Position numbers and translations under genes: made by a program. A stretch of 64,000 nt of DNA from Alphaproteobacteria bacterium. GTDB lineage: Bacteria > Pseudomonadota > Alphaproteobacteria > CAAGCB01 > CAG-977. Under the pieces are notes generated by a model that saw nothing but the letters and a program-made list of their open reading frames with translations, was not told where the DNA came from and searched no databases. Position 1 is the stretch's first letter, and the number at the start of each line of letters is the position of its first letter. Of this stretch, positions 5,239 to 60,864 are shown in pieces. The stretch lies in assembly GCA_024413465.1 (NCBI GenBank), contig JAKSVU010000001.1:159820-223819 (forward strand). The letters run 5' to 3'.

Positions 5239-6670
5239 TCAAATGAATAATTATGATTTAGTTGACAAATTTATATTTAATAACATTGATAGATTAGAAG
5301 CGAAAAAAATCGTATCAAAAGCTTTATCTTCTTTTGAGGATGGTGAACTGTTTAGTGAATACTCTCTTTTTGAAAATATTACTCTTGATGAAAGTAAAAT
5401 AAAATATTCAACATATAATGTTCAATCTGGATTTTGTTTAAGGGCAATTTTGGGAGATACTTTTGCAAACTGCATTTCTGATGATATTTCTAGAAAATCA
5501 TTAAATTTTGCTATTTCAAATTTATCACCATTAAAGTGCAATCCAACACAAAGAAGCACCTACACAAAAGTTTTAAATAAAATTGAAAAATTTTATACAA
5601 CTGAAAACCCTTTATCACAGATTTCATATAAAGAAAAAATACACTTACTAAATGAAATAGATAAATATATTCGAAACAAGGAATCAAAAATTACCCAAGT
5701 TAATTCTTCTTTAGTTGGTTCTTGGAAAATTGTTCATATTATTCAATCAGATGGTAGTGAACAGATTGATATTCGTCCTCAAGTTCAATTTCGAATAGGT
5801 GTTGTCGCAAAAGATAAAGATAAAACAGAAGCAGGCTCCTGTGGAAACGGTGGACGTTTTCTCTATTCAAATATTATAAATGAAGAAAATTGGAAACAGA
5901 TGGCAGACGAAGCAATTCGCATGGCATTAGTAAATTTAGAGGCCAATATTTCTCCTACAGGAGAAATGCCTGTCATACTAGGATGTGGATGGAGTGGCGT
6001 TCTTCTTCATGAGGCTGTTGGACATGGATTAGAAGGAGATTTTAATAGAAAAAAAACTTCTGTTTATTCCGGGAAAATTGGAGAACAAGTTACTGCTAAA
6101 AATATAACAATAGTTGATGATGGAACTATTTTAAATAGAAGAGGTTCTATAAATATTGATGATGAAGGAACTCCTACCCAAAGGACAATTTTGGTAGAAG
6201 ATGGTATTTTAAAAAATTACATGACTGATAAGATTAATGCAAAATTATTAGGCGTTCAATCAACAGGGAATGGTCGCAGAGAATCTTACTTGTACGCTCC
6301 TCAAGTTCGCATGACGAATACTTTTATGCTAGGTGGAGAAAAAACGCATGATGAATTAATTTCATCAGTTCAAAAGGGTATCTATGCAAAATCTTTTACA
6401 GGTGGACAAGTTGATATTTCCTCTGGAAAATTCGTTTTTACAACAAATGAAGCATACGTAATACAAAATGGAAAAATTGATACTCCAATAAAAAATGCAA
6501 CATTAATTGGAAGTGGTTTTGAGGTAATGAATAATATTGACCTAATTGCAAATAATTCATGCCTTGATGATGGAATTGGTTCTTGTGGAAAAGGTGGTCA
6601 AATGGTTCCTGTTGGTGTCGGTATGCCATCTGTTAGGATAAAAAATATAACTGTTGGTGGTAAAGATTAA
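5219..6670 (+). CDS. tldD: Metalloprotease TldD
   Basis: HEAVGHGLEGDFN metal-binding signature and GSCGKGGQ C-terminal block. The true start is probably the ATG at 5243 (MNNYDLV...), 4 nt after the rlmI stop. Confidence 0.85.
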   Translation: MYFNWINQMNNYDLVDKFIFNNIDRLEAKKIVSKALSSFEDGELFSEYSLFENITLDESKIKYSTYNVQSGFCLRAILGDTFANCISDDISRKSLNFAISNLSPLKCNPTQRSTYTKVLNKIEKFYTTENPLSQISYKEKIHLLNEIDKYIRNKESKITQVNSSLVGSWKIVHIIQSDGSEQIDIRPQVQFRIGVVAKDKDKTEAGSCGNGGRFLYSNIINEENWKQMADEAIRMALVNLEANISPTGEMPVILGCGWSGVLLHEAVGHGLEGDFNRKKTSVYSGKIGEQVTAKNITIVDDGTILNRRGSINIDDEGTPTQRTILVEDGILKNYMTDKINAKLLGVQSTGNGRRESYLYAPQVRMTNTFMLGGEKTHDELISSVQKGIYAKSFTGGQVDISSGKFVFTTNEAYVIQNGKIDTPIKNATLIGSGFEVMNNIDLIANNSCLDDGIGSCGKGGQMVPVGVGMPSVRIKNITVGGKD

Positions 6671-8463
6671 TGAATTTTTACAGTAAATATGAAAAATATT
6701 TCATTTTGTTATTATTTTTATGCGTAGAACTACCTATTTTTACGCAATTAATACCTCGTTATCAAGATACCGATAATTATACCCACGCTATTAGAATTAT
6801 TGATTTAATTACTTCTAAGCAATGGGCTGAAACTCCATACATGCACACAAATTATCCTTTTGGTGAAATTTTGCATTTTACTAGAATTACAGATATTTGT
6901 TGGATTATTTGCTCACTTTTTCTCTTTCCATTTTTTACTCTAAAAAATGCTGTTTTTTTTGGTGGAATAAGCTATCAGGCAATATTTTTATTAGGATGCT
7001 TATATGCAATTGTATGGTCTTTAAAAAAATTTTTTTCACCTTTTTGTAGATTGCTGGCAGTCATCCTATTTTTAGTACAACCTCAAGTTGTCGATGTCTT
7101 TATGTTAACAAGACCTGACCATCATATTCTTACTGCTTTTTTTTCAATACTAACTTTTGGTGGTATTATTCGCATTATAAATCACGAAAAAAAATATATT
7201 TGGAGAACTGCTTTATATGCTGCGTTAGGAATTTGGGTATCATTTGAAGGTTTAGCTATAATTTCCCTTTTATCTTTTTGCTTAGCAAGTTTGTGGCTAT
7301 TATCATACCACCCTGTTTCTGATTTAAAAAATTTATTTTTATATCTTACTATTTTTTGTTTAATATTTTTAACAATCAACCCTCCTTATGAAGGTTTCTT
7401 TTTTCCAGATAACGCTCGTTTTTCTTGGTTATTTGTCGTATCTTTTTCTTTTGCCACGATTTCGTTTTACATCTGCGAAAAAACATCTCCAAATAATTTT
7501 TTTTCAAAAATTTTTTTATTATCAAATTGTTCTATTTTCTCATTTTTTATACTAATTTTGTGTTTTTCTTTTAACGCTGTTTTTGCTTGTTGGTTTCCAC
7601 CTTTTATAAAATTAAATTGGGCAAATTTTATTTCAGAATTACAACCAGCAACATCTTCTTCAATATCTTTAAAGTTATGTTTAATTTCTCCGATACTAAG
7701 CATTATAGCTTTCTGTCTATGTATAAAAAAAATCACATTATTTGAAAGAAAAATTATAATACATGCTATTTTCCCAACAATTATCTTTACAATTTTAAGT
7801 TGTTTATCTGTTCGTTATGCAAGATTGGCTTCACCTTTTTTAATTTATCCAATTATTATCTTTATAAAAAAACATTTTGAAAATATACAATTACCTAAGA
7901 AATTCAATTATTCAAAAGCTTTTTATTCTTTTTTATTTTTCTCAATATTACTTATTTTATATAATAATTTTACCACTTACAAATTAATAAAAATGAATAT
8001 TCATACATCTATTTCTGTGATTACACCCTATCTTTCCGAAAAAAAAGAAGCTTTACTTATGGAAAATTCTTTTGGTCCTGAAGCTATTTGGGAAACAGGA
8101 TTACCTGTAATTTCAGCACCATACCACAGAAACATAGAGGGAATCGCTGACAATATTTATATTCTCGAAGATGAAAATATGAACAACGTAGTATTCTTAT
8201 TAAAAAAACATAGAGTTTCTGATATTGCTATATACATGGGATCACAAAATAATCCAAATATTTTAATGTTTGACTGGAGAGAAAGAGAACTTTTTGGTTT
8301 ATTTAATAAAAAGAAAGATACCCTATTCCCCAGATTAATCAGAGGAATAGATGTTCCCTGTGGCTTTAAACAAGTAAAAGAAATACCTTTTCCTTGGCTT
8401 ATCTATCATGTTGATTTTTCAGAATGTTCTTCTGATGATTTTTCAATCAAACCTAAAAATTGA
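6670..8463 (+). CDS. Polytopic integral membrane protein, possibly a GT-C-type glycosyltransferase (ArnT/PMT-like)
   Basis: About 12 predicted TM helices. A periplasmic loop (YQDTDNY) sits near the N-terminus and a ~150-aa soluble C-terminal domain follows. The start overlaps the tldD stop (TAATG). Confidence 0.3.
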   Translation: MNFYSKYEKYFILLLFLCVELPIFTQLIPRYQDTDNYTHAIRIIDLITSKQWAETPYMHTNYPFGEILHFTRITDICWIICSLFLFPFFTLKNAVFFGGISYQAIFLLGCLYAIVWSLKKFFSPFCRLLAVILFLVQPQVVDVFMLTRPDHHILTAFFSILTFGGIIRIINHEKKYIWRTALYAALGIWVSFEGLAIISLLSFCLASLWLLSYHPVSDLKNLFLYLTIFCLIFLTINPPYEGFFFPDNARFSWLFVVSFSFATISFYICEKTSPNNFFSKIFLLSNCSIFSFFILILCFSFNAVFACWFPPFIKLNWANFISELQPATSSSISLKLCLISPILSIIAFCLCIKKITLFERKIIIHAIFPTIIFTILSCLSVRYARLASPFLIYPIIIFIKKHFENIQLPKKFNYSKAFYSFLFFSILLILYNNFTTYKLIKMNIHTSISVITPYLSEKKEALLMENSFGPEAIWETGLPVISAPYHRNIEGIADNIYILEDENMNNVVFLLKKHRVSDIAIYMGSQNNPNILMFDWRERELFGLFNKKKDTLFPRLIRGIDVPCGFKQVKEIPFPWLIYHVDFSECSSDDFSIKPKN

Positions 8464-9623
8464 GCCAATTCTGCCAAAGTTTTTCCTTGAAATAAAAGTG
8501 AAATCAAAACAATAAAGAAAATTCTATTGAATATTCCTTGTGCACCTTCAATACCCTTCATTGATGGTAATGTTGCTAATATAATTGGAACAGCACCTTT
8601 TAATCCAGCCCAACTGATGAATATTTTTTCACAAAAATTATACGAACTTCCTATTAAACAAATAAAAACAGCTATCGGTCTTGAAATAAAAATTAAACAA
8701 ACAGTTAAATCCAAACTATTTAAAAATACACTGGATAATTCATTTGGATTAACTAATAAGCCTAATGTCAAAAACATTACAATTTGCCAAATCCAAGACA
8801 ACGATGACTGAAATTGAACAAATGGATTATGATATGGGAATGACGAATTTCCGATTATCATTCCTGATATATAAAGCGCCAAATATCCATTACCATGAAT
8901 CATCTGTGTACAACTATATGTTAAACATATAACAGAAACTCCAAAAACAGGATACAAACCTTGATATACGAAATTCCATTTTTTTAAAATTAATACTGCA
9001 ATTTTTCCAAAAAAAACACCGCTAGCAATTCCTAATCCTAATTGTAATAGTAAGGAACCTATAATTTCCGATGTTCCCATTGAAGTCCCTGTTAACATAG
9101 AAAGAACACAAACTGATAATATAACAGCCATGGGATCATTTGAACCTGATTCATATTCTAGCAAAGATTTCATTTTTTCATTTTTTAAATCTAATTTATT
9201 TTGACGCAATAATGTAAAAACTGCAGGAGCATCTGTTGATGATAAAATAACACTAATCAGTAACGACATTGTTTTATCCATTTTTAAAATATAAAAACAA
9301 CACCCATACATAACAAAAGCCGTTAAAGCCACGCCTATTGTTGATAAAACACTTCCTCTGAATAAAACAGATTTAACAGATTTCCATTCTGTTTCTAGAC
9401 CACCGGAAAACAAAATAAAAGCCAATGCTAATGTTCCAATATTGTTTGTTGCTTCCGCTGAATCAAATTTGAACCCAGCACCATCAACGCCTGCTAGCAT
9501 TCCTAAAATTAAAAATATTAATAATGATGGAAGACCTGTATTTATTGAAATTTTATTTGCAAAAACGCTTAATAAAAGTAAGGCTCCGGCAACAGCCATT
9601 AATAACTCTAGACTCATAGACAA
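8406..9623 (-). CDS. Monovalent cation:proton antiporter (CPA1/NhaP-type Na+/H+ exchanger)
   Basis: 10-11 TM helices with the Na_H_Exchanger-like blocks SGSNDPMAVILS and TDAPAVFTLL. The convergent 3' end overlaps the previous gene by ~58 nt. Confidence 0.65.
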   Translation of the reverse strand: MSMSLELLMAVAGALLLLSVFANKISINTGLPSLLIFLILGMLAGVDGAGFKFDSAEATNNIGTLALAFILFSGGLETEWKSVKSVLFRGSVLSTIGVALTAFVMYGCCFYILKMDKTMSLLISVILSSTDAPAVFTLLRQNKLDLKNEKMKSLLEYESGSNDPMAVILSVCVLSMLTGTSMGTSEIIGSLLLQLGLGIASGVFFGKIAVLILKKWNFVYQGLYPVFGVSVICLTYSCTQMIHGNGYLALYISGMIIGNSSFPYHNPFVQFQSSLSWIWQIVMFLTLGLLVNPNELSSVFLNSLDLTVCLIFISRPIAVFICLIGSSYNFCEKIFISWAGLKGAVPIILATLPSMKGIEGAQGIFNRIFFIVLISLLFQGKTLAELAQFLGLIEKSSEEHSEKST

Positions 9624-9702
9624 ACCTCCTATTTTTTTATAAATAATCTACATGAGCTGAAATTAGAGTAACAAAGAAAAAAAATTATTTCAATAAATTT
9701 AT

Positions 9703-9741
9703 AAAAAAAAATCAAAGACTTCCTTGTCTTTGATTTTTTTA
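9703..9741. terminator. Rho-independent terminator downstream of gltX
   Basis: Hairpin atcaaagac-ttcctt-gtctttgat flanked by A and T runs. Confidence 0.5.
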
Positions 9742-9750
9742 TAATTAATT

Positions 9751-11196
9751 CTATCCTAATTTATTTATTCCAATTTGAATTCGGGATAAACATTCCTCCT
9801 TACCTAATAAATATGCGATTTCTATTGCTCCTGTTGGTGTACATTGCTTGCCTGTTAAAGCTGTTCTAATCGGCCACAAAAACTGACCATTTTTTAATCC
9901 TAATTTTTCAGGCATAACCATAAAAGCATCATGTATCGCTTCAATAGACGACCAATCTGTCATATTTTTAATTAAATTTTCAGCCTCTAACAATGCAGTT
10001 CTTGATATTTCTACTGTTGTTTTCATTTTTTTATGAATATACATTTCCGTATCATATTCAGGTAATATTTCAATAAAATCTATCGCCTCTGGTATTTCAT
10101 TTAAAACATTTACTCTTGGTTGAATACATTTTGCTAATGTTTCAAAATCTATATCCTTATGAATTACCTGTTTCATCCAAGGTTCTGATAATTTATAAAA
10201 TTTTTCGCAAGGTAACTCTCTAATATATACACCATTCATCCATTTTAATTTTTCTATATCAAAAATCGCTGGTGATTTATTTATTCCTTCAACATTAAAA
10301 ACTTTTTCTAATTCTTCCATAGAAAATATTTCTTGATCGTTTTTAGCACTCCATCCCAATAAAACGATATAATTCACTATTGCTTCTGGTAAATAACCTT
10401 TTTGAACCAAATCTTGGAAAGAAGCATCACCGTTTCTTTTTGACAATTTATTATGTTCATCTTTCATAATAGGTGGCAAATGAACATACGTTGGAATATC
10501 CCATCCAAAAGCTTGGTACATTAAATTATATTTAGGAGTTGATGATAAATACTCATTTCCACGTAAAACATGTGTAATGTTCATTAAATGATCATCAACG
10601 ACGTTTGCAAAATTATATGTAGGCAAACCATCTGATTTTAATAAAATTCCTTCATCTAAGGTTTTTGTTTCTACACTAACATGTCCATAAACAACATCGT
10701 CAAAAGAAACCTCTCCATCAGGATTAATTGTTTGACGAACTGTATATTTTTCACCATTGGATATTCTTTTTTTTGCCTCTTCTATTGAAATATTTTTACA
10801 TGGATCATCAAACTTAAAGGGCACACCAGTTTCTTCACATTTTTTTCTTTGATTTTCAAGTTCTTCTTCAGAACAGAAACAATAATGTGCTCCGCCTAAT
10901 TCAACTAATATATCCGCATATTTTTTATAAATAGCTTTTCTTTCAGATTGAACATATGGACCAAAATTTCCACCAATATCAGGACCTTCATCATGTTTTA
11001 ACCCAACCATTTTCATCGTTTTATAAATGATATCGACAGCCCCTTCAACATAACGTTCCTGATCTGTATCCTCAATACGTAAGATAAATTTTCCTCCTGC
11101 ACTTTTGGCAACAAGGTATTCATACAATGCTGTTCTTAAATTTCCAATATGCATATAGCCTGTTGGAGATGGAGCAAATCTACTTCTTACTTCCAT
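9751..11196 (-). CDS. gltX: Glutamyl-tRNA synthetase
   Basis: RFAPSPTGYMHIGNLRTALY (HIGH region) and KLSKR (KMSKS variant). Length is 481 aa. Confidence 0.85.
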   Translation of the reverse strand: MEVRSRFAPSPTGYMHIGNLRTALYEYLVAKSAGGKFILRIEDTDQERYVEGAVDIIYKTMKMVGLKHDEGPDIGGNFGPYVQSERKAIYKKYADILVELGGAHYCFCSEEELENQRKKCEETGVPFKFDDPCKNISIEEAKKRISNGEKYTVRQTINPDGEVSFDDVVYGHVSVETKTLDEGILLKSDGLPTYNFANVVDDHLMNITHVLRGNEYLSSTPKYNLMYQAFGWDIPTYVHLPPIMKDEHNKLSKRNGDASFQDLVQKGYLPEAIVNYIVLLGWSAKNDQEIFSMEELEKVFNVEGINKSPAIFDIEKLKWMNGVYIRELPCEKFYKLSEPWMKQVIHKDIDFETLAKCIQPRVNVLNEIPEAIDFIEILPEYDTEMYIHKKMKTTVEISRTALLEAENLIKNMTDWSSIEAIHDAFMVMPEKLGLKNGQFLWPIRTALTGKQCTPTGAIEIAYLLGKEECLSRIQIGINKLG

Positions 11197-14530: not shown

Positions 14531-15526
14531 TTACATTGCTTGAGAAACAGCAACTGCTACTGCAACACTAGCTCCAACCATTGGGTTATTACCCATACCG
14601 ATCAAGCCCATCATTTCGACGTGTGCTGGAACGGAAGAAGAACCCGCAAATTGAGCATCACCATGCATACGCCCCATTGTATCGGTCATACCATAAGAAG
14701 CAGGACCTGCTGCTACGTTATCTGGGTGCAATGTACGACCTGTACCACCACCACTAGCAACTGAGAAGTACTTCTTACCATGTTCTATAGCCCATTTCTT
14801 GTATGTACCTGCAACTGGATGTTGAAAACGTGTTGGGTTGGTTGAGTTACCTGTAATAGAAACATCAACACCTTCTTTAATCATAATAGCCACACCTTCA
14901 GAAACATCGTCTGCACCGTAGCAACGAACTTTTGCACGATCACCTTTAGAAAAAGCTTTTTCAGAAACAATTTTCAAACTACCTGTTTTATAATCATATT
15001 CTGTTTCGACAGATGTAAATCCGTTAATACGAGAAATGATATAAGCAGCATCTTTTCCCAAACCGTTTAAAATAACCTGTAAGGGTTGTTTACGTACTTT
15101 ATTAGCTGTTAAAGCAATACCAATAGCACCTTCGGCAGCAGCAAAAGATTCATGACCTGCTAAGAAGCAGAAACATTTTGTTTCTTCGCTCAACAACATA
15201 GCTGCCAAGTTTCCATGACCTAAACCAACAGCACGTTGATCAGCAACAGATCCTGGAATGCAGAATGCCTGTAAACCAACACCAATCTTTTCAGCAGCTT
15301 CAGCAGCTGATTTTACGTTTGATTTAATCGCAACTGCAGCACCTAAAGTATATGCCCAGCAAGCATTTTCAAAGCAAATCGGCTGAATATCTTTTACAAT
15401 TTTAGCAACATCAATACCTTTATCTTTACAGATTTTATCTGCTTCTTCGATATTCTTAATACCATATTTTTTGCAGCATTCATCAATCTGCGCAATACGA
15501 CGTTCATAACTTTCAAAAAGACTCAT
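14531..15526 (-). CDS. GGGtGRT-family protein (conserved protein family of unknown function)
   Basis: Contains the family-defining SGGGTGRTLHPDNV motif. Gly/Ala-rich, 331 aa. Visibly more GC-rich than its neighbours. Confidence 0.7.
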   Translation of the reverse strand: MSLFESYERRIAQIDECCKKYGIKNIEEADKICKDKGIDVAKIVKDIQPICFENACWAYTLGAAVAIKSNVKSAAEAAEKIGVGLQAFCIPGSVADQRAVGLGHGNLAAMLLSEETKCFCFLAGHESFAAAEGAIGIALTANKVRKQPLQVILNGLGKDAAYIISRINGFTSVETEYDYKTGSLKIVSEKAFSKGDRAKVRCYGADDVSEGVAIMIKEGVDVSITGNSTNPTRFQHPVAGTYKKWAIEHGKKYFSVASGGGTGRTLHPDNVAAGPASYGMTDTMGRMHGDAQFAGSSSVPAHVEMMGLIGMGNNPMVGASVAVAVAVSQAM

Positions 15527-15537
15527 TTTTGTTCTCC

Positions 15538-16242
15538 TTATTCTTTGCGCGGATCAATTACTTTTACAGCATCAGCAAAACGACCTTTTGTAGCAACGTT
15601 CTTTTCGAATGCTTCTTTAGGATCAACACCTTTTTTTATAGCTTCCATCATCTTGCCCAAGTTTACTGTCTTATAACCAATAACTTCGTTATTTTCATCT
15701 AAACCTTCAGCCAATACGTAACCTTCAGCCATTTCCAAATAACGGACGCCCTTTGGTTCTGTAGAATACATTGTACCTACTTGAGAACGTAAACCTTTAC
15801 CTAAATCTTCTAAGCCAGCACCTACTGGTAAACCATCATCAGAAAATGCTGATTGTGTTCTACCATAAACGATTTGTAAGAACAATTCACGCATAGCAAC
15901 GTTAATTGCATCACAAACTAAATCTGTATTTAAGGCTTCTAAAATCGTTTTACCTGGTAATACTTCTGCAGCCATAGCAGCTGAGTGTGTCATACCTGAG
16001 CAACCAATTGTTTCAACTAAAGCTTCACGAATTATACCTTTTTTAACATTTAATGTTAATTTGCACGTACCTTGTTGTGGTGCACAAGCGCCAACACCGT
16101 GAGTTAACCCTGAAATATCCGTTACTTCTTTTGATTTTACCCATTTACCTTCTTCAGGAATTGGGGCTGGTTCATGACGTGCACCTTTAGCAACTGTGCA
16201 CATTTCTTGAACTTCTTTTGAACATTGATAAGAACAAGTCAT
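15538..16242 (-). CDS. IscU/NifU-like Fe-S cluster scaffold-domain protein
   Basis: ETIGCSGMTHSAAMAAEVLPGKTI resembles the IscU C-terminal Cys block (GCGSAIASSS...GKTL). Adjacent to, and on the same strand as, the GGGtGRT gene (11-nt gap). Confidence 0.55.
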   Translation of the reverse strand: MTCSYQCSKEVQEMCTVAKGARHEPAPIPEEGKWVKSKEVTDISGLTHGVGACAPQQGTCKLTLNVKKGIIREALVETIGCSGMTHSAAMAAEVLPGKTILEALNTDLVCDAINVAMRELFLQIVYGRTQSAFSDDGLPVGAGLEDLGKGLRSQVGTMYSTEPKGVRYLEMAEGYVLAEGLDENNEVIGYKTVNLGKMMEAIKKGVDPKEAFEKNVATKGRFADAVKVIDPRKE

Positions 16243-17097: not shown

Positions 17098-17128
17098 AAA
17101 AAGGCGGTTTAAAACCGCCTTTTTTTTA
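17097..17128. terminator. Bidirectional terminator between the thioesterase gene and hppA
   Basis: aaaaaa-ggcggttt-aaaaccgcc-tttttttt. Confidence 0.55.
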
Positions 17129-19597
17129 TTTATCTTCTTTTAAAACAGGAATTCTCATTCCATAGAAAGATTTTACAATAAAATACAATCCTATTAAGAA
17201 GAATACTCCACCAATCCACAATGCTGTATGTTCTGCTTCAACAGCAATTTCTACTGCTAACAAACCAAACAATGTTGTGAATTTGATAATTGGATTCAAT
17301 GCAACGGATGATGTATCTTTAAACGGATCACCAACTGTATCACCAACAACTGTTGCTGCATGCAAGTCTGTTCCCTTTTCATGCATATCTACTTCAACTA
17401 ATTTTTTAGCATTATCCCAAGCACCACCAGCATTAGCCATGAAGATTGCTTGATATAAGCCAAAAATAGCAATTGAAATCAAATAACTTGCAAAAAAAGT
17501 TGGATCAAAACAAGCGTAGGCTAATGTAAAACAGAACAATGCACCAAAAATATTCATCATACCGTTTTGAGCATATGTTGTACAAATACGAACAACTGCT
17601 GTAGAATCCTCAACAGAAGCTTTTTCTGCTGTAGAATCTAACTTAATGTTGTCCTTGATAAACATAACTGCTCTATAAGCCCCTGTAGTAACAGCTTGAA
17701 TACTTGCACCACAGAACCAATAAATAATTGCACCACCAGCCATAAAACCAATTAAAACTCGCGGATCTAGCAAACTCAACTGTAATTTTAACAATAATAT
17801 AATTGAAAAAATCATTGTTGTTGCTCCCATGACAGCTGTACCTATTAAAACTGGTTTAGCTGTAGCTTTAAACGTATTTCCAGCAGAATCATTTTCTTCT
17901 AAATAGTACTTACCTTTTTCAAAATCAGGTTCGAAACCGAAATCTCTTTTTATTTCTTCTTTAATATTTGGAAGAGTCTCTATCTGTGATAATTCAAAAA
18001 CAGATTGAGCATTATCTGTCACTGGACCATAACTATCAACAGCTATCGTTACTGGCCCCATACTTAGCATACCAAAAGCAACCAATCCAAATGCAAAAAC
18101 CGTTGGATAAATCATGATTTGGTTCAATCCATTTGCAGATGCAAAGTATGCAACAAGCATCAATAATGTCAATGTCATGCCTTTCCAAAAAGCACTAAAA
18201 TTACCAGCTACAATACCTGATAAAATTGATAATGATGCTCCACCTTCACGTCCAGCATTAACAACTTCACGAACGTGCTTTGAAGAAGATGATGTAAATG
18301 CCTTTGTTAACTCTGGAATTAATGCTGCAGAAAGCGTTCCACAACTAATAATTGTTGCTAACCTAAACCAAATGCAACCAAAATCCTTCAACAAAGTATA
18401 ACTTACAGCATATGTCACACAAATCGCTAAGGATGAACTCAACCAAACTAAAGTTGTTAAAGGAAGTTCAAAATTAAATTTCTTTCCCATAAAAAACTTA
18501 TATGTTTTACCGTTTATTGCATATGCTAAAACAGATGTCATGATCATTAAGATACGCATTACAAAAATCCAAACAATCAATTTTGCCTGAATTTCTTGGC
18601 CATTTGATGATAACGCTATACTTCCATCAGGACGAACAATCATTCCTACAGCCAAAATAATAAATGTAATTAATGCTACGCCTGTAACCCCATACGTTTC
18701 AAAACCATCCGCTGTTGGTCCCACAGAATCCCCTGCATTATCTCCAGTGCAATCTGCAGTAACACCTGGATTTCTTGCATCATCTTCTTTAATGTTAAAG
18801 AAAATTTTCATTAAATCAGCACCAATATCTGCGATTTTAGTAAAAATACCACCACAAATACGTAAAACAGAAGCCCCTAAAGATTCTCCAATTGCAAATC
18901 CAATAAAACAAGAACCAGCATCTTCAGCAGGAACAAACAACAAAATACTTAACATCATTACTAATTCGACACATATTAGTAATACGCCTATAGACATTCC
19001 TGACCTTAATGGAATTCTTAAAACAGGTTCTGGATTTCCTTTTAATGCTTCAAAAGCAGTTCTACAATTTGCCCAGTTATTAATTGCAATGCCAAACCAA
19101 GCAACACCGACAGATCCCATAATTCCAAGTATAGACCATAAGAATATAATCATTACTCTTGATAAATTAAAATCACGCAAGAAGTAGAAATAGTAGAATA
19201 AACAAATACCAATCAAAACTTCAAGTTTCATCAAAAGTTTTATTTGCTGAATCAAGTATGTATTACATGTTTTGTGAATAAGTATTGATGTATTTTCCAT
19301 TGAGGAATGTAATTTCATTTTTCTAATTCTATGAAATTCCCACAATCCAAAAATCATACCTAAAACACAAATAACAAGACCTATAGCTAACAAACAATTT
19401 CCAGAACATGCCATTCCAAAAACATTAAAAGACTGATTTAAATTAGGTAAAATTAAATCAGCTTCACTTGCAAACAAAGGCTTTGTAAAAAATGAAATAA
19501 TCAAAAAAAACAAAGCGTATAAACGCATATTAAAACCTCTTAAATAATATGTATACAAAACATATTCTGCTTTTTTGCAGAACATATTGTCCCGCAT
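17126..19597 (-). CDS. hppA: Membrane-bound H+-translocating pyrophosphatase
   Basis: GGIFTKIADIGADLMKI, DNAGDSVGP and DTVGDPFKDTSS are H+-PPase signatures. The ORF has ~23 extra N-terminal codons. Met24 (MRLYALFFL..., ATG near 19528) is the more likely start. Confidence 0.9.
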   Translation of the reverse strand: MRDNMFCKKAEYVLYTYYLRGFNMRLYALFFLIISFFTKPLFASEADLILPNLNQSFNVFGMACSGNCLLAIGLVICVLGMIFGLWEFHRIRKMKLHSSMENTSILIHKTCNTYLIQQIKLLMKLEVLIGICLFYYFYFLRDFNLSRVMIIFLWSILGIMGSVGVAWFGIAINNWANCRTAFEALKGNPEPVLRIPLRSGMSIGVLLICVELVMMLSILLFVPAEDAGSCFIGFAIGESLGASVLRICGGIFTKIADIGADLMKIFFNIKEDDARNPGVTADCTGDNAGDSVGPTADGFETYGVTGVALITFIILAVGMIVRPDGSIALSSNGQEIQAKLIVWIFVMRILMIMTSVLAYAINGKTYKFFMGKKFNFELPLTTLVWLSSSLAICVTYAVSYTLLKDFGCIWFRLATIISCGTLSAALIPELTKAFTSSSSKHVREVVNAGREGGASLSILSGIVAGNFSAFWKGMTLTLLMLVAYFASANGLNQIMIYPTVFAFGLVAFGMLSMGPVTIAVDSYGPVTDNAQSVFELSQIETLPNIKEEIKRDFGFEPDFEKGKYYLEENDSAGNTFKATAKPVLIGTAVMGATTMIFSIILLLKLQLSLLDPRVLIGFMAGGAIIYWFCGASIQAVTTGAYRAVMFIKDNIKLDSTAEKASVEDSTAVVRICTTYAQNGMMNIFGALFCFTLAYACFDPTFFASYLISIAIFGLYQAIFMANAGGAWDNAKKLVEVDMHEKGTDLHAATVVGDTVGDPFKDTSSVALNPIIKFTTLFGLLAVEIAVEAEHTALWIGGVFFLIGLYFIVKSFYGMRIPVLKEDK

Positions 19598-19715
19598 TTT
19601 ATCACATTTGTTTATTATTTCATCTAAAAAATGATTTAATCTCCTTCTTCCAATTTGTTTAAAAGTATGTTATTTAGAATTCAGTTTTTTTAGGATTTAA
19701 ATTTTAGGTAAAAAA

Positions 19716-20111
19716 ATGACCTTTGAAGAACTTTATGAAAATTTTTCTTTTTTAGATGATTGGGAATCAAAATATAGTTATTTGATTGATTTAGGAAATA
19801 ATTTGCCCTCTTTTGCTGAAATTGATAAAAATGATGAAAATAAAATCGATGGTTGCATGAGTCAAGTTTGGTTAAAAATGGAAATCATTGATGACATCAT
19901 CAATTTTCACGGAGAAAGTGATGCTCATATTGTTCGAGGATTAATTGCCGTTTTACAGATAATGCTTTCAGGAAAAACAAAGAAAGAAATACTTGAAGCA
20001 GATATTCCTGACCTTTTTAAAAAATTAGGATTAGATGCTCATCTTAGTCCTTCAAGAAGAAATGGTTTTTTTTCTATGGTAGAACGTATAAAAAAAGAAG
20101 CTAAAAAATGA
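19716..20111 (+). CDS. sufE: Cysteine desulfuration (sulfur acceptor) protein SufE-like
   Basis: Conserved Cys context DGCMSQVWL. 131 aa. Confidence 0.7.
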   Translation: MTFEELYENFSFLDDWESKYSYLIDLGNNLPSFAEIDKNDENKIDGCMSQVWLKMEIIDDIINFHGESDAHIVRGLIAVLQIMLSGKTKKEILEADIPDLFKKLGLDAHLSPSRRNGFFSMVERIKKEAKK

Positions 20112-21937
20112 TTCAAAAAAAATACTTTGTATTATTACTCTTTTTTACCTTACTTTTAAATTCAATTGAAACTTTTTCCACTGAAATGGATGAAGAAGGA
20201 CTTGAGTGTAAAAGCAACGCTTCTTGTGAGATAGGGTGGCAATGTCGTCAGGTAAATCTTGATCAATGGAAATGTGTAAAATTATGTCAAAAACCAGAAG
20301 ATTCTGACGGGAATTTGTGCGATAAAATCCATCCGGAATGTTTTATTTCAGATGAAGGACATTCTTCCTATTGCGGATGTATTGAAGGTAGTTGTAACAC
20401 TGGTAGTATTTGCGTGGGGACAAAATGTATCCCCTGTCCAAAGGGACACACTCATGTAGATGGACAAAGTTGTAATTGTCCTCCTGGTACAGCATCTAAT
20501 GGTAAAGAAGGTTGTTTAGCATGCCAAAAAGGACAAAATTGTTCCTGTAAAAATAATTTTATCTCTAATGGTCAAGGTGATTGTGTCGAATGTAACACTG
20601 TCGAAGATTGTGGTGATTTTGGAAAAAAGTGTTTATTTCCAGGCCAATTGAATTCTCAATGTATTGATTTGGAATGTGAAAAAGGAGAATACATCGTTGG
20701 CAACCATTGTGAAAAGTGTCCTGATGGTTGTGAAACTTGCCAAGGAATCAATTTATGTAAATCATGTGCAGCCGGACATTATCTTGCTGGAGGGAAATGT
20801 ATCTCCTGTGCTAAAAAATTTGGTATAGGTTGTGGAAAATGTTCAATACAAAGTTCAAAATGTGAAGTATGTAAACTCGGATACATAAAAAATAAAAAGG
20901 ATTTTTGCGTACCAATAACATGTTTAAATGATGAATTTTTGAGTGGAGATATTTGCACAAAGTGTTCTAGATCTTTGAAAAACTGTTTATCTTGTTCAAA
21001 TGAAGAAGAATGTACAAAATGTACTTCTCCAAGAATGGTATTAAATTCAAATAAGAAATGTATTTGCCCTTTAGGTTGGAAATTTACAAAAAACAAGAAT
21101 GATTGCGAAAAAATTCCGTGTAAAAAAGGAGAATTTCACACCGGATCAGGATGTGCTCCATGTCCAGAGGAATGTACAGATTGTTCCTCAACAGAATTAT
21201 GTTATGCGTGTAATAACGAGAACGGTTTTATTCTTTCAGAAAATAAATGTACAAAAATTCAATGTAATTTCGGAGAATATCGCAATAAAATATCTTGTTT
21301 AAAATGTTCTGACAAAATAAATGATTGTATTTCTTGTTCAGAAGATGGAAATAAATGTTTAGAATGTAAAACTGGATTTCGTATAGAAAATGGAAAATGT
21401 CTTCCTATAATTTGTGAAAAAGATGAATTTCTTAAGGGAAATTCCTGCTTAAAATGTGCACAAAAATTTGAACATTGTGCTTCCTGCAATGAAGGGATGT
21501 GCTTGACTTGTGAAAAACTTCATGAATTAAAAAATGGAACATGTCAATACAAAAAATGTACCGGAAATACGTTTTTAAATAAAATTTCTGATTCTTGTGA
21601 AGAATGTCCTATCGGAACAAAATCAAATGGGAGTGATTGTGAAAAAATTATATGCCCACAAGGACAATACCTAGATGGAAATGATTGTAAAAAGTGTAAT
21701 GAATCCTGTTTAACTTGTTCAAATAAATCTTTTTGTGATACATGTCCCGAAGGGAAAGGTATCTATGATAAAGGTTTTTGCTCTAACAGGGAAATAGGAT
21801 ATTTTTATAAACAACACCATTATATTCCTTGCAATCAAAAAATCCCAGGATGCACAGAATGTACAAATGATGGATCTATTTGTTTGGATTGTGGAAGATA
21901 TAAAATGGATATTTTACAAAAATGCATTGTAAAATAA
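20108..21937 (+). CDS. Secreted cysteine-rich repeat protein (furin-like/EGF-like CxxC repeats, eukaryotic surface-antigen-like)
   Basis: Signal peptide MIQKKYFVLLLFFTLLLNSIETFS. More than 90 Cys arranged as reiterated C-x2-C-x(5-12)-C-x2-C units with a ~35-40-aa period. The ATG overlaps the sufE stop (ATGA). Confidence 0.6.
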   Translation: MIQKKYFVLLLFFTLLLNSIETFSTEMDEEGLECKSNASCEIGWQCRQVNLDQWKCVKLCQKPEDSDGNLCDKIHPECFISDEGHSSYCGCIEGSCNTGSICVGTKCIPCPKGHTHVDGQSCNCPPGTASNGKEGCLACQKGQNCSCKNNFISNGQGDCVECNTVEDCGDFGKKCLFPGQLNSQCIDLECEKGEYIVGNHCEKCPDGCETCQGINLCKSCAAGHYLAGGKCISCAKKFGIGCGKCSIQSSKCEVCKLGYIKNKKDFCVPITCLNDEFLSGDICTKCSRSLKNCLSCSNEEECTKCTSPRMVLNSNKKCICPLGWKFTKNKNDCEKIPCKKGEFHTGSGCAPCPEECTDCSSTELCYACNNENGFILSENKCTKIQCNFGEYRNKISCLKCSDKINDCISCSEDGNKCLECKTGFRIENGKCLPIICEKDEFLKGNSCLKCAQKFEHCASCNEGMCLTCEKLHELKNGTCQYKKCTGNTFLNKISDSCEECPIGTKSNGSDCEKIICPQGQYLDGNDCKKCNESCLTCSNKSFCDTCPEGKGIYDKGFCSNREIGYFYKQHHYIPCNQKIPGCTECTNDGSICLDCGRYKMDILQKCIVK

Positions 21938-21939
21938 TC

Positions 21940-22392
21940 TTAAGCTAAACTTTCTCTAAGTTTCTGAATCTCGTTTGTTGCCAGTTGATCACACTTTTCA
22001 TTTTCTGGGTGTCCTGCATGTCCTTTTATCCAATACCAGTGAATAGTGTGAACTTTACTGAATCTATAAATTTCTTGCCACAAACCACTATTTTTGACTG
22101 AATGAGATTTAGAAATTCTCCATGAATTTTTAGCCCACTTATACATCCATTCACTAGCCCCTTTCACGACATATTGGCTATCTGATGTTAAATCTATTTC
22201 ACATGGTTCTTTTAATAAACTTAAAGCAGAAACAACAGCTTGTAATTCCATTTCGTTATTTGTTGTTAAATTTTTTGATCCACTAATCTCTTTTGTATGA
22301 GAATTATAAATCAGCAGAGCTCCCCACCCCCCCATACCAGGATTACCACTACAAGCCCCATCTGTATAAATTTTTATTTTTTTCATTAACAA
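21940..22392 (-). CDS. rnhA: Ribonuclease HI
   Basis: KIYTDGACSGNPGMGGWGALL plus the catalytic D/E/D/H pattern. 150 aa. Confidence 0.85.
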   Translation of the reverse strand: MLMKKIKIYTDGACSGNPGMGGWGALLIYNSHTKEISGSKNLTTNNEMELQAVVSALSLLKEPCEIDLTSDSQYVVKGASEWMYKWAKNSWRISKSHSVKNSGLWQEIYRFSKVHTIHWYWIKGHAGHPENEKCDQLATNEIQKLRESLA

Positions 22393-22451: not shown

Positions 22452-23345
22452 ATGAAAGGATTAAAAATGCATATATCTTTTTTTACCTGTGGTGGAATAT
22501 TTTGGTGGATTGATAAATTTTGTTGGAATGGTTGGAGAATTCAACAAAATATGTGGACTAGGCGTCACAGACTTTTAGATCCTTATCAAATATGCAGAAA
22601 ATGGGGATCTTTTGAAAAATGTTATGATGCTTTAAATCTGTATAAAATGGATTGGGAAATCCCAATACCGCATAATAAAGCTGTAGTTTTTCTTCACGGT
22701 TTATATCAACCTCCTTGGATTTTTTCAAAAATTGCTTTCAGAATGAAAAAGAATTTTGAGCCAATTTTTTTTAGCACCCCTCTACTAAGATTTGACATAG
22801 AAAAAAATGCTCAGATTTTAAATGAATACTTAGATAAAAGAGATAGCATTGAACAATTTAATTTTATTGCTACTGGAATTGGAGCTTTATTACTTCGGAC
22901 TGCCTATTCAAAAAATCCACGATGGGCAAAAAAAATGGGACGCTGTGTCTTTTTATCAGTTGCAAACAAAGGGTACTCTTATTTAAGAGGTAAAGAAAAT
23001 AAATTTTGGTTCAAACTTTTATTTTCAAAAATAGGAAAATACCTTTTACCATCATATATGGAAAACCTTTTACCTTTTACAGCCGATTACTCTATTATTT
23101 ATGGTGGAAAAGAAAATGATACTGGATTTTTCTCATTTTTAAAATCTGATAATGATGGATTTTTGCGTGTATGTGATGCTCTTGATGATAATGCAAAAGA
23201 AAGTTTTTGCGCAATAAACAGACATCATTTTAAACTTTTTCATGACAATCAAATAAAAGATTTAATTTTTAATTTTATTTCCACTGGACACTTTGGAAAA
23301 GGACAGCGACTGAAAAAAGATTCTGCACAAATTTGGAATATTTAA
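22452..23345 (+). CDS. Hypothetical protein with alpha/beta-hydrolase-like motifs
   Basis: VVFLHGL (HG oxyanion-type motif), and ATGIGALL at the position where a GxSxG nucleophile elbow is expected, but with no Ser. Function unknown. Confidence 0.35.
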   Translation: MKGLKMHISFFTCGGIFWWIDKFCWNGWRIQQNMWTRRHRLLDPYQICRKWGSFEKCYDALNLYKMDWEIPIPHNKAVVFLHGLYQPPWIFSKIAFRMKKNFEPIFFSTPLLRFDIEKNAQILNEYLDKRDSIEQFNFIATGIGALLLRTAYSKNPRWAKKMGRCVFLSVANKGYSYLRGKENKFWFKLLFSKIGKYLLPSYMENLLPFTADYSIIYGGKENDTGFFSFLKSDNDGFLRVCDALDDNAKESFCAINRHHFKLFHDNQIKDLIFNFISTGHFGKGQRLKKDSAQIWNI

Positions 23346-23740
23346 TATATCGGTTTATCATAAACACCAATTAAAACATCTGTTTTATTAGGACTTGGTT
23401 CATAATAACATGTTGATGTTGCCAATGATCGATAACAATAGACCTTTCTAACATTATACCTGGAATGTTCTGCTTCGAAAAGTTCAAATTCAGTCATGCA
23501 ATATTTCCCTTCTCCTGATAATTTTCTTTCTATAGAACAATTTTTTCCTGTAATTATTGAACTTACATGATCTCCAACAAACTTATCTGTCGCTGCATAT
23601 GAAACCACCTCAGCCGCACCAAAGGCTGTCAATGGTGCAAGATTCCACGGCATAGATTCTACAGGAGTTGTCAACCAACATCCTTGTAGGAAAAGAACAA
23701 AAAACAATGTACCTAAAATTTTCATTATAAAAAAATCCAA
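23342..23740 (-). CDS. Putative lipoprotein, function unknown
   Basis: Signal peptide with lipobox LFLQGC. 132 aa. Stop codon overlaps convergently with the previous gene. Confidence 0.4.
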   Translation of the reverse strand: MDFFIMKILGTLFFVLFLQGCWLTTPVESMPWNLAPLTAFGAAEVVSYAATDKFVGDHVSSIITGKNCSIERKLSGEGKYCMTEFELFEAEHSRYNVRKVYCYRSLATSTCYYEPSPNKTDVLIGVYDKPIY

Positions 23741-36190: not shown

Positions 36191-37204
36191 TTGAGAGTCA
36201 TTTATTTTCTATTAGCATCATTTTTGATATCATTAAAAGTAAATGCTCAAGTAACATTAAACTTTGATGATTTGTCAGAAGATTTTATATCTGAAAAAAA
36301 AGTGGAGCATTCTCAAAAAATACAATTAACTCCAATTTCTCATGAAGAAACAGGAAAAAAACATGAGAAGAGTAAAGTTGTTGTAAAGAAAAGTAATGTA
36401 AAGAAAGAGAGTGTACAACCTTCTCAGAAACAGCAATCTCAAAAAAAGAATTACATTGTAAAAGAACAAGAGAAAGAAGATGCTCATGATAAATTGAAAC
36501 CTCGTTCAGAACCAGTTCCTGTTGTAAAAGTTCAAGAAATTGAAAAACAGGTTGAAGAGATTTTATCTACAAAAAAATTAAATAGTTCTGAAAATGTGGT
36601 GCAAAAAGAAAATCAAGAAAAAACTATACTAGAACTGAAAACTTCAGAAAAACATGATGACGTTTCAGAAACGAAATTTTCTGTGAAAAAGGATGATAAT
36701 TCAGTAATACTGGAAAAAAAAGAACACCTTGCGTTTAAAGAGAAAGAACAAAGGGTTAATTCTTTTTATCCGGATAAGAAGTCATCTATTTTATCTGTGA
36801 ATGAGAATAATCTTCAAAAAAGATCTGATGCCTTAAAAAAGTTTATTCCGACAGATTCAAAAACTTTTTTTGATATACAAAAAGAAAAGTATCTTTATTT
36901 GGTATTTGTATTTGAAAAAAAATCTTCACATTTAACAGAGGATATGGAATCTTGGATAGATAAAATTTCACTTGAATTACAAAAAAATAAGAAACTTAAT
37001 TTAATAATCTATTCTTACAGTGGCCCAACAGATCCAGAATATGGAAGGGAACATCACTTATCACTTCAAAGAGCCCTTCGAGTTCGTTCAGGTTTTTCAA
37101 GGAGAGGTATTACAATTCATCGTATTTCATACCGTTCTTGGGGAAAAATTGGTGCAGGAAATGAATATCCTGACCGTGTGGATCTTCTAATTCATGCAAA
37201 ATAA
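36191..37204 (+). CDS. Secreted K/E-rich protein with a degenerate C-terminal OmpA-like peptidoglycan-binding domain
   Basis: TTG start with an aggag SD. Signal peptide ends ...KVNA/QV. C-terminal IIYSYSGPTDPEYGREHHLSLQRALRVRSGFSRRGI...RVDLLI parallels the OmpA_C pattern (GHTD..G...N..LS..RA..V...L...G). Confidence 0.5.
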   Translation: MRVIYFLLASFLISLKVNAQVTLNFDDLSEDFISEKKVEHSQKIQLTPISHEETGKKHEKSKVVVKKSNVKKESVQPSQKQQSQKKNYIVKEQEKEDAHDKLKPRSEPVPVVKVQEIEKQVEEILSTKKLNSSENVVQKENQEKTILELKTSEKHDDVSETKFSVKKDDNSVILEKKEHLAFKEKEQRVNSFYPDKKSSILSVNENNLQKRSDALKKFIPTDSKTFFDIQKEKYLYLVFVFEKKSSHLTEDMESWIDKISLELQKNKKLNLIIYSYSGPTDPEYGREHHLSLQRALRVRSGFSRRGITIHRISYRSWGKIGAGNEYPDRVDLLIHAK

Positions 37205-37219
37205 TCTTTAGGTAATAAA

Positions 37220-38209
37220 ATGATTTTATCCAATAGATATATCTTCAGAATGTTTTTATTTTTGGCTATAATCATTCCTTTTATCGTTATTTTTTTTCCA
37301 ACAATAAATAGTATCTTTTGTACAAATCTAATTTTAAATGGACTTATCATTTTAGCTCTGCTAATTGGGATATTTATTAATTTTAAAACAGTTATTAGTC
37401 TTCGAAAAGAGATTCGATGGGCAAACACCACCCCCTTAGATTTATCTGATTTATCAATCAAACCTTTAAAATTATTGTCACCACTGGCTTTTTTATTAAG
37501 AAACAACAAAGCAAAAGGGAATGCTGTTATTTCACCAACGATAGCCAGAACAGTGCTAGATTCTGTTTCGATGAGGATGGATGAAATTAGAGATATTTCG
37601 AGATATTTGACAGGATTGACAACTTTTTTAGGATTGTTAGGAACATTTTGGGGATTGATGGGAACTGTTAGCTCTGTTGGAGATGTTATAACATCACTAA
37701 GTGTCGCAGGAGAAACTGCAATTGAAGCTTTTGATACAATAAAAAAAGGTTTGTCTGCTCCCCTATCAAATATGGGCATTGCTTTTTCATCATCATTATT
37801 AGGGTTAGCCAGTGCTTTGATACTCGGTTTTTTAGACTTACAAGCAAATGGAGCTCAGAATCATTTTTATAATGAACTCGATGAATATCTAGCAAAATTA
37901 ACTAGATATTCCTCATCTATTGGAAATGCTGATGATCAAATTTCTTCAAATGGAGCTTATACAAATGCTTTGTTAGAGCAAATTGTGGAATGTTTATCAG
38001 ACGTCAGGACTCAAATAAACAAAGAAACAACTTTAGAAGAAAGTCAAATTCAAACAGATTTAGATTTTATAAAATACATAAGTAGAATTGACAGAAATTT
38101 GGCACAACTAGATAAAAATGCAGAAAAAAGACAGGAAAATGCTATAAAAGAAATGCGAGACTCCTTCAGAATTTTATCTAGGACGATATCTTCTGGTGAA
38201 GAAAAATAA
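37220..38209 (+). CDS. MotA/TolQ/ExbB-family proton-channel protein
   Basis: N-terminal TM pair, then the MotA_ExbB core (LTTFLGLLGTFWGLMGT...MGIAFSSSLLGLASALILGFLDL), then a ~120-aa cytoplasmic tail. Its stop overlaps the next gene's start (TAATG). Confidence 0.7.
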   Translation: MILSNRYIFRMFLFLAIIIPFIVIFFPTINSIFCTNLILNGLIILALLIGIFINFKTVISLRKEIRWANTTPLDLSDLSIKPLKLLSPLAFLLRNNKAKGNAVISPTIARTVLDSVSMRMDEIRDISRYLTGLTTFLGLLGTFWGLMGTVSSVGDVITSLSVAGETAIEAFDTIKKGLSAPLSNMGIAFSSSLLGLASALILGFLDLQANGAQNHFYNELDEYLAKLTRYSSSIGNADDQISSNGAYTNALLEQIVECLSDVRTQINKETTLEESQIQTDLDFIKYISRIDRNLAQLDKNAEKRQENAIKEMRDSFRILSRTISSGEEK

Positions 38210-39192
38210 TGGATGGAAAATTTTCTAAAAAAAAACAAGTTTTTAACTTTTGGCCAAGTTTTGTTGATGCTTTGTCAAATTTGTTGATAGTTGTTTTATT
38301 TTTTCTTCTTTTATTTGTGATGGCTCATTTTTTTTTAGGAACAAATTTAAATTCTAAAAATAATGAAATAGTAATCTTAAACAATCAAATGGATAATCTT
38401 ATTCAAGAACTTAATTTAGAAAAAAAAGAAAATATAAATCTAAAAAATGATGTAAAAAATTTAAATGAAATCTCTTTAAATCTAAAAAATGATTTAGAAA
38501 ATAAGATTAAGGAAAATGAGCAAATATATACAGAACTTTCAAAGCAAATCAAATCAAATGAAAATTTTCAAAAGGATATTTTGTTTTTAACAAATAAGAC
38601 AACACATTTAAATTCAGAAATTGAAAAATTAAATGATTTACTAAAAAAATCTGAAGAAGACGATAAAAAACAAAAAGCTCAAATTGCTGATTTAGGAAAA
38701 CAATTAAATAAAGCTTTGGCCAAAAAAGCATCTGAATTAGCATATTATCGCTCTAATTTTTTTGGCACATTACGAAAAATATTAAAAGATAGAGAAGATA
38801 TCATTGAAGCTGGTGATCGTTTTATTTTTCAATCTGAACTTTTTTTTAAAAGTGGATCAGATGATTTAGAAGATACTGGCAAAGAAAATTTAAAAATTCT
38901 TGCAAAATCTATTCTCGAATTAGAAAAGCAAATACCCAATAAAATAAATTGGGTTCTGCGCGTTGATGGACATACCGATAACATACCAATTTCCAATGAA
39001 AAATTTGCGTCAAATTGGCATTTATCTGTAGCCAGATCAATTTCAGTTATACAATATTTAATTGAACTTGGAGTGAATCCAAGAAGACTTGTTGCTACTG
39101 GATTTGGAGAATATCAACCTGTTGATAAAAAGAATACTCAAAACGCACGTAAAAAAAATAGAAGAATTGAATTTAAGTTAACAGAAAAATAA
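38209..39192 (+). CDS. MotB-like stator subunit with a long coiled coil and a C-terminal OmpA/MotB peptidoglycan-binding domain
   Basis: N-terminal TM FWPSFVDALSNLLIVVLFF resembles the MotB plug/TM with its conserved Asp (FVD). A ~200-aa heptad-repeat region follows. C-terminus VDGHTDNIPI...NWHLSVARSISV...GFGEYQPV...NRRIEF is the OmpA_C signature. Confidence 0.7.
   Translation: MDGKFSKKKQVFNFWPSFVDALSNLLIVVLFFLLLFVMAHFFLGTNLNSKNNEIVILNNQMDNLIQELNLEKKENINLKNDVKNLNEISLNLKNDLENKIKENEQIYTELSKQIKSNENFQKDILFLTNKTTHLNSEIEKLNDLLKKSEEDDKKQKAQIADLGKQLNKALAKKASELAYYRSNFFGTLRKILKDREDIIEAGDRFIFQSELFFKSGSDDLEDTGKENLKILAKSILELEKQIPNKINWVLRVDGHTDNIPISNEKFASNWHLSVARSISVIQYLIELGVNPRRLVATGFGEYQPVDKKNTQNARKKNRRIEFKLTEK

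Positions 39193-60779: not shown

Positions 60780-60864
<85 letters not shown>

Follow-up and report, generated by a model that had tools for sequence, protein, structure and literature searches.

We analysed a 64,000-nucleotide stretch of DNA from an Alphaproteobacteria bacterium (contig JAKSVU010000001.1 of assembly GCA_024413465.1, positions 159,820 to 223,819; hereafter the window), in which a sufE gene is directly followed by a gene for a very Cys-rich protein of 609 amino acids (aa). The sufE gene (19716-20111, plus strand, 131 aa on the open reading frame (ORF) map) matches Pfam SufE with 154.5 bits (E=1.3e-45) and carries the motif DGCMSQVW; NCBI names its product, a cytosolic sulfur acceptor, 'SufE family protein' (MCQ2965265.1), and its NCBIfam SufE/CsdE matches fall under the equivalog cut-offs. 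The Cys-rich gene, a 609-aa ORF at 20108-21937 on the same strand, begins before sufE has ended: its ATG overlaps the sufE TGA as an ATGA at 20108-20111 (junction AAAAAATGATTC). The first-pass annotation had placed the start over the sufE stop in the same way, and both the ORF map and the junction sequence agree with it. This arrangement allows translational coupling of the two genes. Upstream, an intergenic region (19598-19715) presumed to hold the promoter of the pair separates sufE from a divergent H+-pyrophosphatase gene (17126-19597, minus strand, Pfam H_PPase E=8.5e-177). Downstream lies the convergent rnhA gene for RNase H (21940-22392, minus strand, Pfam RNase_H E=5.9e-46), a conserved neighbour whose stop codon is 2 nucleotides (nt) from that of the Cys-rich gene. 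A scan for consensus promoters and terminators near the pair gave nothing better than shuffled sequences, and Rfam had no match in the sufE/Cys-rich region.

The identical protein is deposited as MCQ2965266.1, 'MAG: hypothetical protein MJ250_00815 [Alphaproteobacteria bacterium]', that is, from a metagenome-assembled genome (MAG), and it is also entry JALNLV010455903.1 of a horse-gut gene catalogue (PMC9529974). Compared with an 81%-identical orthologue in another locus (L002), the gene has a ratio of nonsynonymous to synonymous substitution rates (dN/dS) of 0.089, and in the same comparison its neighbours sufE, rnhA, bamB, der and ruvB have 0.06-0.095. All 90 cysteines are invariant across seven orthologues that share 37-81% identity. 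By these comparisons the 609-aa ORF is a real gene and is subject to purifying selection. Three further, short ORFs inside it (20779-21096, 21099-21302 and 21259-21489), which are antisense or out of frame, were rejected as spurious because it is the long frame that is under selection.

A HMMER scan of 1.84 billion representative proteins recovered the full-length orthologues P0007 and P0008 (39-43% identity), and the whole family comprises only ~7 representative clusters in that collection. When a 5-sequence alignment was used as the query in a scan of one genome per species, four loci were found, in the MAGs HGM16787, HGM16788 and UBA3864 and in a record labelled Limosilactobacillus gorillae. 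In 7/7 independent orthologous loci (including L002, L003 and L005-L009) sufE is followed by the Cys-rich gene and then by a convergent rnhA, although the genomes differ widely in their guanine-plus-cytosine (GC) content, 32% in the window and L002 versus 52-55% in L003-L009. The Cys-rich gene tracks its genome (0.32 versus 0.52-0.56), and in the window its GC and third-position GC (GC3) of 0.323 and 0.18 equal those of the genome. SufE itself is 64-70% identical between the 32% GC and the 52-55% GC lineages, and several genes downstream of rnhA are also collinear; there is thus a strong compositional shift, of more than 20 GC points, within one gut alphaproteobacterial group. The record titled 'Limosilactobacillus gorillae' (L003/L009; GCA_963604715.1, CAVCSV010000001.1) has 54% GC, nuo-type Proton_antipo_M genes and the sufE/Cys-rich/rnhA locus, and the bin is probably mislabelled.

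The family was found only in uncultured gut Alphaproteobacteria of horse and human, so the earlier suggestion of a host-associated bacterium holds, both through the horse-gut catalogue entry and through the orthologues in human-gut MAGs. It has at least three branches. Branch A consists of the sufE-linked orthologues of 609-654 aa. Branch B is a paralogue of 527-548 aa, present in the same MAG as MJ250_07075 (MCQ2966479.1), where it directly follows, with an ATGA overlap, a phosphoglucomutase/phosphomannomutase gene; in the branch B loci L010 (4485-6068) and L011 (4791-6437) the junction is an ATGA overlap and a 3-nt gap, respectively, and we noted that the gene sits behind two tandem phosphoglucomutase/phosphomannomutase genes. 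Branch C is the 680-aa protein P0069, whose gene (L015, 6001-8043) stands alone and which carries the motif of the N-terminal head described below several times, at its C-terminus. In the 90%-identity cluster of the 548-aa Cys-rich protein P0009 there are also phosphomannomutases of 455 aa (P0131), which are not homologous, have been mixed in wrongly and were taken out of the alignments.

The 609-aa protein contains 90 cysteines (14.8% of its residues); every other ORF of the 64-kb window has at most 3.8%. It has 27 CxxC motifs, where 2000 composition-preserving shuffles have 13.6 ± 3.1 and at most 24, and seven triple cores of the form CxxC-x(3-7)-CxxC-x(4-7)-CxxC, compared with 0.11 in the shuffles. 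Cys spacing, shuffle tests and unit alignment delimit a repeat array at residues 185-609 (20660-21934, plus strand), with units at residues 185-230, 231-266, 267-332, 333-380, 381-430, 431-478, 479-510, 511-557 and 558-609. The typical unit is ~48-50 aa long, with eight cysteines and three CxxC, and truncated or expanded units span 32-66 aa; the consensus reads C-x4-C-x10-C-x2-C-x3-6-C-x2-C-x4-6-C-x2-C-x10-12. Thus the recurring CxxC units reported in the first-pass annotation are real and can be aligned as nine units, whereas its period of ~35-40 aa has to be corrected to the longer one given by the Cys spacing and the unit alignment. The furin-like (FU) motif of the PC5/PACE4 type spans ~45-50 aa and has eight cysteines spaced as Cx2Cx3Cx2Cx5-7Cx2Cx8-15Cx3-4C. 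One strict and six relaxed matches to the FU motif occur in the 609-aa protein, compared with 0.004 and 0.034 in 2000 shuffles. By these measures residues 185-609 consist of nine diverged furin-like repeats, of the type shared by FU proteins and the VSPs, variant-specific surface proteins of protists. No tandem repeats were found at the DNA level in the gene, and the units are therefore old.

The array is preceded by a Cys-rich head (residues 25-184, 20180-20659, plus strand), which is better conserved than any other part of the protein and carries the family-specific motifs PEC...GHSSYCGC.EGSC, GQSC.CP.G.A..GKGGC and NG.G.CV.C.T..DCG. Outside the cysteines, its identity to distant orthologues is 35-40%, compared with 24-30% for the repeats. 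A head-only profile searched against 5.8 billion proteins found one further protein, of 206 aa, in which the motif C.CP.G..ANG.GGC...C..D.DCG is repeated, and in Pfam the head gave a weak, sub-threshold similarity to TNFR_ELAPOR1 and nothing stronger.

The 609-aa protein had no meaningful whole-protein match in Pfam and no NCBIfam family at E<=1, neither a Myxococcus-type nor any other curated bacterial Cys-rich repeat family, and a Pfam fragment scan returned only sub-threshold matches to VSP (21.6 bits with a cut-off of 31.4), ELAPOR and TNFR. In a word-indexed search the single protein found nothing but itself, and phmmer against the PDB sequences gave noise only. The family profile, searched against the PDB sequences, matched R-spondins only (E=7e-4 to 2e-2), with the Cys framework aligned, and its hhalign comparison with RSPO1 gave 79%. 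When the family alignment was compared locally by hhalign with five repeat proteins from Entamoeba, Tetrahymena and bacteria, the probabilities were 99.0-99.8% (E 1e-18 to 1e-27). For each target, eight shuffles that preserve composition reached at most 1.2% probability, with E >=0.045, so it is the pattern, and not just the Cys content, that is similar. Profile searches of the 5.8-billion-protein collection returned a CXXC-rich kinase-like protein of Entamoeba histolytica (E=4.5e-34), vertebrate PCSK5 (E=7e-32) and leishmanolysin-domain proteins, and an exhaustive single-sequence search returned Tetrahymena proteins with Pfam VSP or Furin-like_2 domains (E 7e-27 to 1e-14). We also modelled the structure with AlphaFold2. 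The model from the single sequence was unusable (predicted local distance difference test (pLDDT) score 46), and the 7-sequence family alignment was used instead, which gave a mean pLDDT of 80.1 and a model made only of short beta-hairpins, with a disordered signal peptide. Foldseek matched this model in the PDB to a Cys-rich repeat protein of the Chlamydomonas mastigoneme (8wa2, E=4.6e-8), to Fu1-Fu2 of R-spondin (probability 0.96-0.98) and further to ErbB3/4, EGFR, insulin receptor, ELAPOR1, laminin and TNFR-type modules. The predicted fold is thus furin-like. The first-pass annotation had named furin-like and Giardia VSP repeats as the type, which both the predicted fold and the profile comparisons support, and it had called the protein eukaryote-like, which fits the fact that every species-named match outside the family is eukaryotic (Tetrahymena, Entamoeba and vertebrate PCSK5).

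Residues 1-24 (20108-20179, plus strand) form a predicted Sec-type signal peptide, MIQKKYFVLLLFFTLLLNSIETFS|TE, with an inferred cleavage site and without a lipobox. The top Kyte-Doolittle windows of the protein cover residues 5-20, its sole strongly hydrophobic segment; KK stands before this segment and SIETFS|TE after it, as expected for a Sec signal peptide. An N-terminus with the equivalent succession of n-, h- and c-regions is present in 9/9 family members analysed, and the signal peptide of the first-pass annotation is supported to this extent. Outside the N-terminus no 19-aa window of the 609-aa protein exceeds a mean hydropathy of 1.6, so a second membrane-spanning segment was not found, and the C-terminus (YKMDILQKCIVK, ending in ...LQKCIVK) has no anchor. 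The predicted mature part has an even number of cysteines (90, 100 or 86) in 9/9 members. From these features we infer that the protein is exported through Sec and that, as their even number and invariance would suggest, all its cysteines may be held in intramolecular disulfides.

Cys-rich repeats of the furin-like and VSP types are well-known extracellular modules of eukaryotes, found in growth-factor receptors, R-spondins, proprotein convertases and surface proteins of Giardia and Entamoeba. With the FU repeats of R-spondin, ErbB/EGFR, insulin receptor and PCSK5/PACE4 (PF00757, PF15913) the 609-aa protein shares a unit of ~48 aa with eight cysteines spaced as Cx2Cx3-7Cx2Cx4-7Cx2Cx8-15Cx1-4C and, in the model, a beta-hairpin ladder. 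It differs from them in being bacterial, in its predicted Sec signal peptide and family-specific head, in the absence of a protease, kinase, L-domain or thrombospondin partner and in staying under the Pfam thresholds. The Giardia VSPs and the ectodomains of Entamoeba CXXC-kinases (PF03302) have the same dense CxxC periodicity and GxY/F aromatic positions, and the PF03302-bearing Entamoeba protein aligned by hhalign at 99.1-99.2% probability over 370-395 columns. However, the 609-aa protein has neither the C-terminal transmembrane helix nor the CRGKA-type tail of Giardia VSPs, its best fragment match stays under the VSP cut-off, and instead of a large variable multigene family under diversifying selection there are a single syntenic locus, two paralogues known from the MAG and purifying selection. 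The Cys-rich and leishmanolysin-associated proteins of Tetrahymena, which are the top species-named matches, have the same repeat framework, but they are eukaryotic multi-domain proteins of 800-3000 aa, similar in the repeats only and lacking the head.

Two bacterial proteins, P0012 (from a PolC-bearing, Firmicute-like contig) and P0180 (MBE6461648.1, from another Alphaproteobacteria MAG), also share the repeat framework (hhalign E ~1e-27 and 2e-18) and are by profile as close to the family as the protist proteins. They differ in length (1017-1407 aa), architecture and context, lack the head and are not orthologous. Metagenome contigs or MAGs are the source of both, and the ENA assembly accessions of P0012 and L005 fall in one run. 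Unrelated gut bacteria also carry such repeats: a 27.6% GC contig with a PolC-type polymerase (L013) encodes a 1407-aa repeat protein of the same type at 6001-10224. The L013 gene adjoins genes for a 1616-aa DUF285 protein and a glucosaminidase. In the literature we found nothing directly relevant on bacterial furin-like or VSP-like proteins or on this gut alphaproteobacterial lineage.

Taken together, we consider it probable that the 609-aa ORF is a genuine gene for an exported furin-like-repeat protein, probably an extracytoplasmic stalk or binding protein, and that its link to sufE is positional. According to this reading, sufE and the Cys-rich gene would share one transcript, from which the protein, encoded second, would be translated through the ATGA coupling, exported unfolded through Sec and oxidized in the periplasm to form up to 45 disulfides. 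The product would be an extended beta-hairpin ladder with the fold of the furin repeats of R-spondin and ErbB, and presumably of the Giardia and Entamoeba CXXC proteins, in which the head may act as an interaction module and the repeats as a rigid spacer. The most likely role would be that of a protease-resistant, rod-like extracytoplasmic scaffold or an adhesin-like binding protein in the gut. Several observations weigh against this interpretation. None of the 9/9 family members has a match over a Pfam gathering threshold, Furin-like, Furin-like_2 and GF_recep_IV included. No anchor, autotransporter or secretion-system signal was recognisable in the 609-aa protein. P0069 as called lacks a signal peptide, owing to an in-frame stop just upstream. 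A Dsb oxidoreductase gene was not found among the Pfam-scanned ORFs of the window, which were all but ~8 of those present. Finally, the adjacency to sufE is kept in 7/7 loci despite ~60% protein divergence and a different gene upstream of sufE (H+-pyrophosphatase in the window, DUF6782 elsewhere), and a regulatory or functional link therefore keeps some room.

Does the position behind sufE have a meaning beyond operon packing? Co-transcription and translational coupling of the two genes are likely from the junctions: the overlap is ATGA in the window and L002 and a single nucleotide (TGATG) in L005, and in L003, L006 and L008 a gap of 9-14 nt contains a Shine-Dalgarno-like AAGGA or AAGGGA motif before a GTG start. 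In a functional pairing, the CxxC array could serve as an extracytoplasmic metal (Zn/Fe) or sulfur buffer that is co-regulated with Fe-S cluster assembly. Giardia VSPs have been reported to bind Zn and Fe, the array offers 27 CxxC motifs, and the adjacency, as an overlap or a gap of at most 14 nt, persists in all seven loci across a shift from 32% to 54% GC and outlasts the change of the upstream gene. However, overlaps occur in 13 of the 36 same-strand gene pairs of the window, in six cases of exactly 4 nt, at a coding fraction of ~0.95, and functionally unlike genes, for example bamB and der, are among the overlapping pairs. The orthologues co-occur with sufE but the paralogues follow a phosphomannomutase gene or stand alone, so the link is best read as operon packing and not as a shared function in sulfur trafficking. 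Such a function is also unsupported because SufE is cytosolic while the Cys-rich protein carries an export signal. Moreover, the mature Cys count is even throughout the family, no metal-binding or Fe-S family was matched in Pfam or NCBIfam, and the closest solved folds, those of R-spondin and ErbB, are fully disulfide-bonded and not known to contain metal. We therefore regard a metal or sulfur buffer as very unlikely, and the sufE pairing that the first-pass annotation found odd is not a functional oddity, as a paralogue has the same kind of overlap with a phosphomannomutase gene. A similarly slight probability attaches to the idea that the protein, located in the periplasm or at the outer membrane, cross-links the envelope, stiffening it by intermolecular disulfides in the manner of the chlamydial OmcB/OmcA complex. 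Chlamydial OmcB and OmcA are exported, Cys-rich envelope proteins of ~60 kDa without enzymatic domains, and the 609-aa protein resembles them in being exported as predicted, ~66 kDa, extremely Cys-rich and free of enzymatic domains, with housekeeping-like purifying selection in a housekeeping operon. The analogy is functional only, as no sequence or fold relationship was detected and OmcB has far fewer cysteines and another repeat type. The even number of cysteines, like the furin-like fold, points to intramolecular disulfides only, with no Pfam or NCBIfam match no similarity to a known envelope family was seen, and the window, with its OmpA-family, BamB and SecDF genes, shows neither a loss of envelope genes nor an evident special need. 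A cytosolic zinc-finger array of an ordinary bacterial family, DnaJ-like as in the refuting case named by the first-pass annotation or of another kind, would account for the high CxxC density, but each member has only 0-1 CxxCxGxG motifs, no zinc-finger family was matched in Pfam or NCBIfam and the signal peptide is conserved. Together with a spurious ORF, against which the dN/dS of 0.09 and the retention of 90/90 cysteines speak, the zinc-finger array has a negligible probability.

The remaining question is whether a protein of such eukaryotic character could have come from a eukaryote. The first-pass annotation had proposed a laterally acquired gene or a mimic of host surface proteins, and a gene taken from a gut ciliate, an amoeba or the host could serve in mimicry of protist or host surface proteins, for instance in protist attachment or as an immune decoy. 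In favour of this, the species-named matches outside the family are all eukaryotic (a Tetrahymena thermophila-type protein, UPI00006CE100, T. malaccensis and T. utriculariae, besides the Entamoeba histolytica kinase-like protein, vertebrate PCSK5 and the leishmanolysin-domain proteins), and so are all the Foldseek matches; the family is also limited to a narrow bacterial clade, ~7 clusters among 1.84 billion. The exact protein occurs in the gene catalogue of the horse gut, a ciliate-rich habitat in which ciliates made up to 18% of the biomass in the same study (PMC9529974). On the other hand, GC and GC3 of the gene equal those of its genome, with 52-56% GC genes in the 52-56% GC relatives, synteny in seven genomes attests to long vertical inheritance, and a dN/dS of 0.09 leaves no diversifying selection. 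Orthologues also occur in human-gut MAGs, only two paralogues are known from the MAG, and the protein has a bacterial signal peptide and no membrane anchor. Moreover, P0012, from a PolC-bearing, Firmicute-like contig, is the closest protein by profile (E ~1e-27), ahead of Tetrahymena, and therefore no eukaryotic donor is indicated. On balance acquisition from a eukaryote with a role in mimicry appears unlikely. A recent eukaryote-to-bacterium transfer is not supported by composition, synteny or selection, so this part of the earlier proposal fell, while the eukaryote-type nature of the repeats stood; short, Cys-dominated repeats do not allow a decision on an ancient transfer, whichever its direction. 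Doubtful to a greater degree is a combined scenario in which gut Alphaproteobacteria long ago captured, or share by descent, a eukaryote-type module that they use as an exported rod for association with protists or mucosa, or in which co-expression with SufE reflects a real redox, sulfur or metal link. If true, either form of this scenario would give furin-like repeats their first functional role in bacteria.

Elsewhere in the window, the minus-strand region 14531-16242 contains a GGGtGRT-family gene (E=2e-194) that adjoins a 234-aa ORF without a Pfam match (start MTCSYQCSKEVQEMC); the two have a GC content of 0.38-0.40 versus ~0.31 around them. A 597-aa ORF at 6670-8463 (plus strand, 27% GC) has a hydrophobic N-terminal region and no Pfam match at E<=1e-4, and a cNMP-binding protein is encoded at 2026-4011. 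Beyond rnhA, the region 22452-23740 contains a 297-aa ORF without a Pfam match that is conserved in L002, L005 and L014 and is convergent, with a 4-nt overlap, to a gene for a small probable lipoprotein (lipobox-like LFLQGC, weak DUF6726). At 36191-39192 (plus strand) lie genes for an OmpA-domain protein with a signal-like N-terminus, a 329-aa ORF without a match and a second, MotB-like OmpA-domain protein, and this cluster is followed by a gene for an adenylate/guanylate-cyclase-domain protein (39589-41541). The sole Rfam match of the window is a single tRNA gene (60783-60864, minus strand) between the trigger-factor and secF genes.

What we describe is thus a compact bacterial family made almost wholly of furin-like repeats, which is unannotated and escapes both Pfam and NCBIfam; its sequences could seed a new family model. 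Although it reveals no new mechanism, the family would offer a tractable bacterial model for the export and folding of a protein with up to 45 predicted disulfides, and it is a candidate surface or adhesion factor of poorly known, uncultured gut Alphaproteobacteria.

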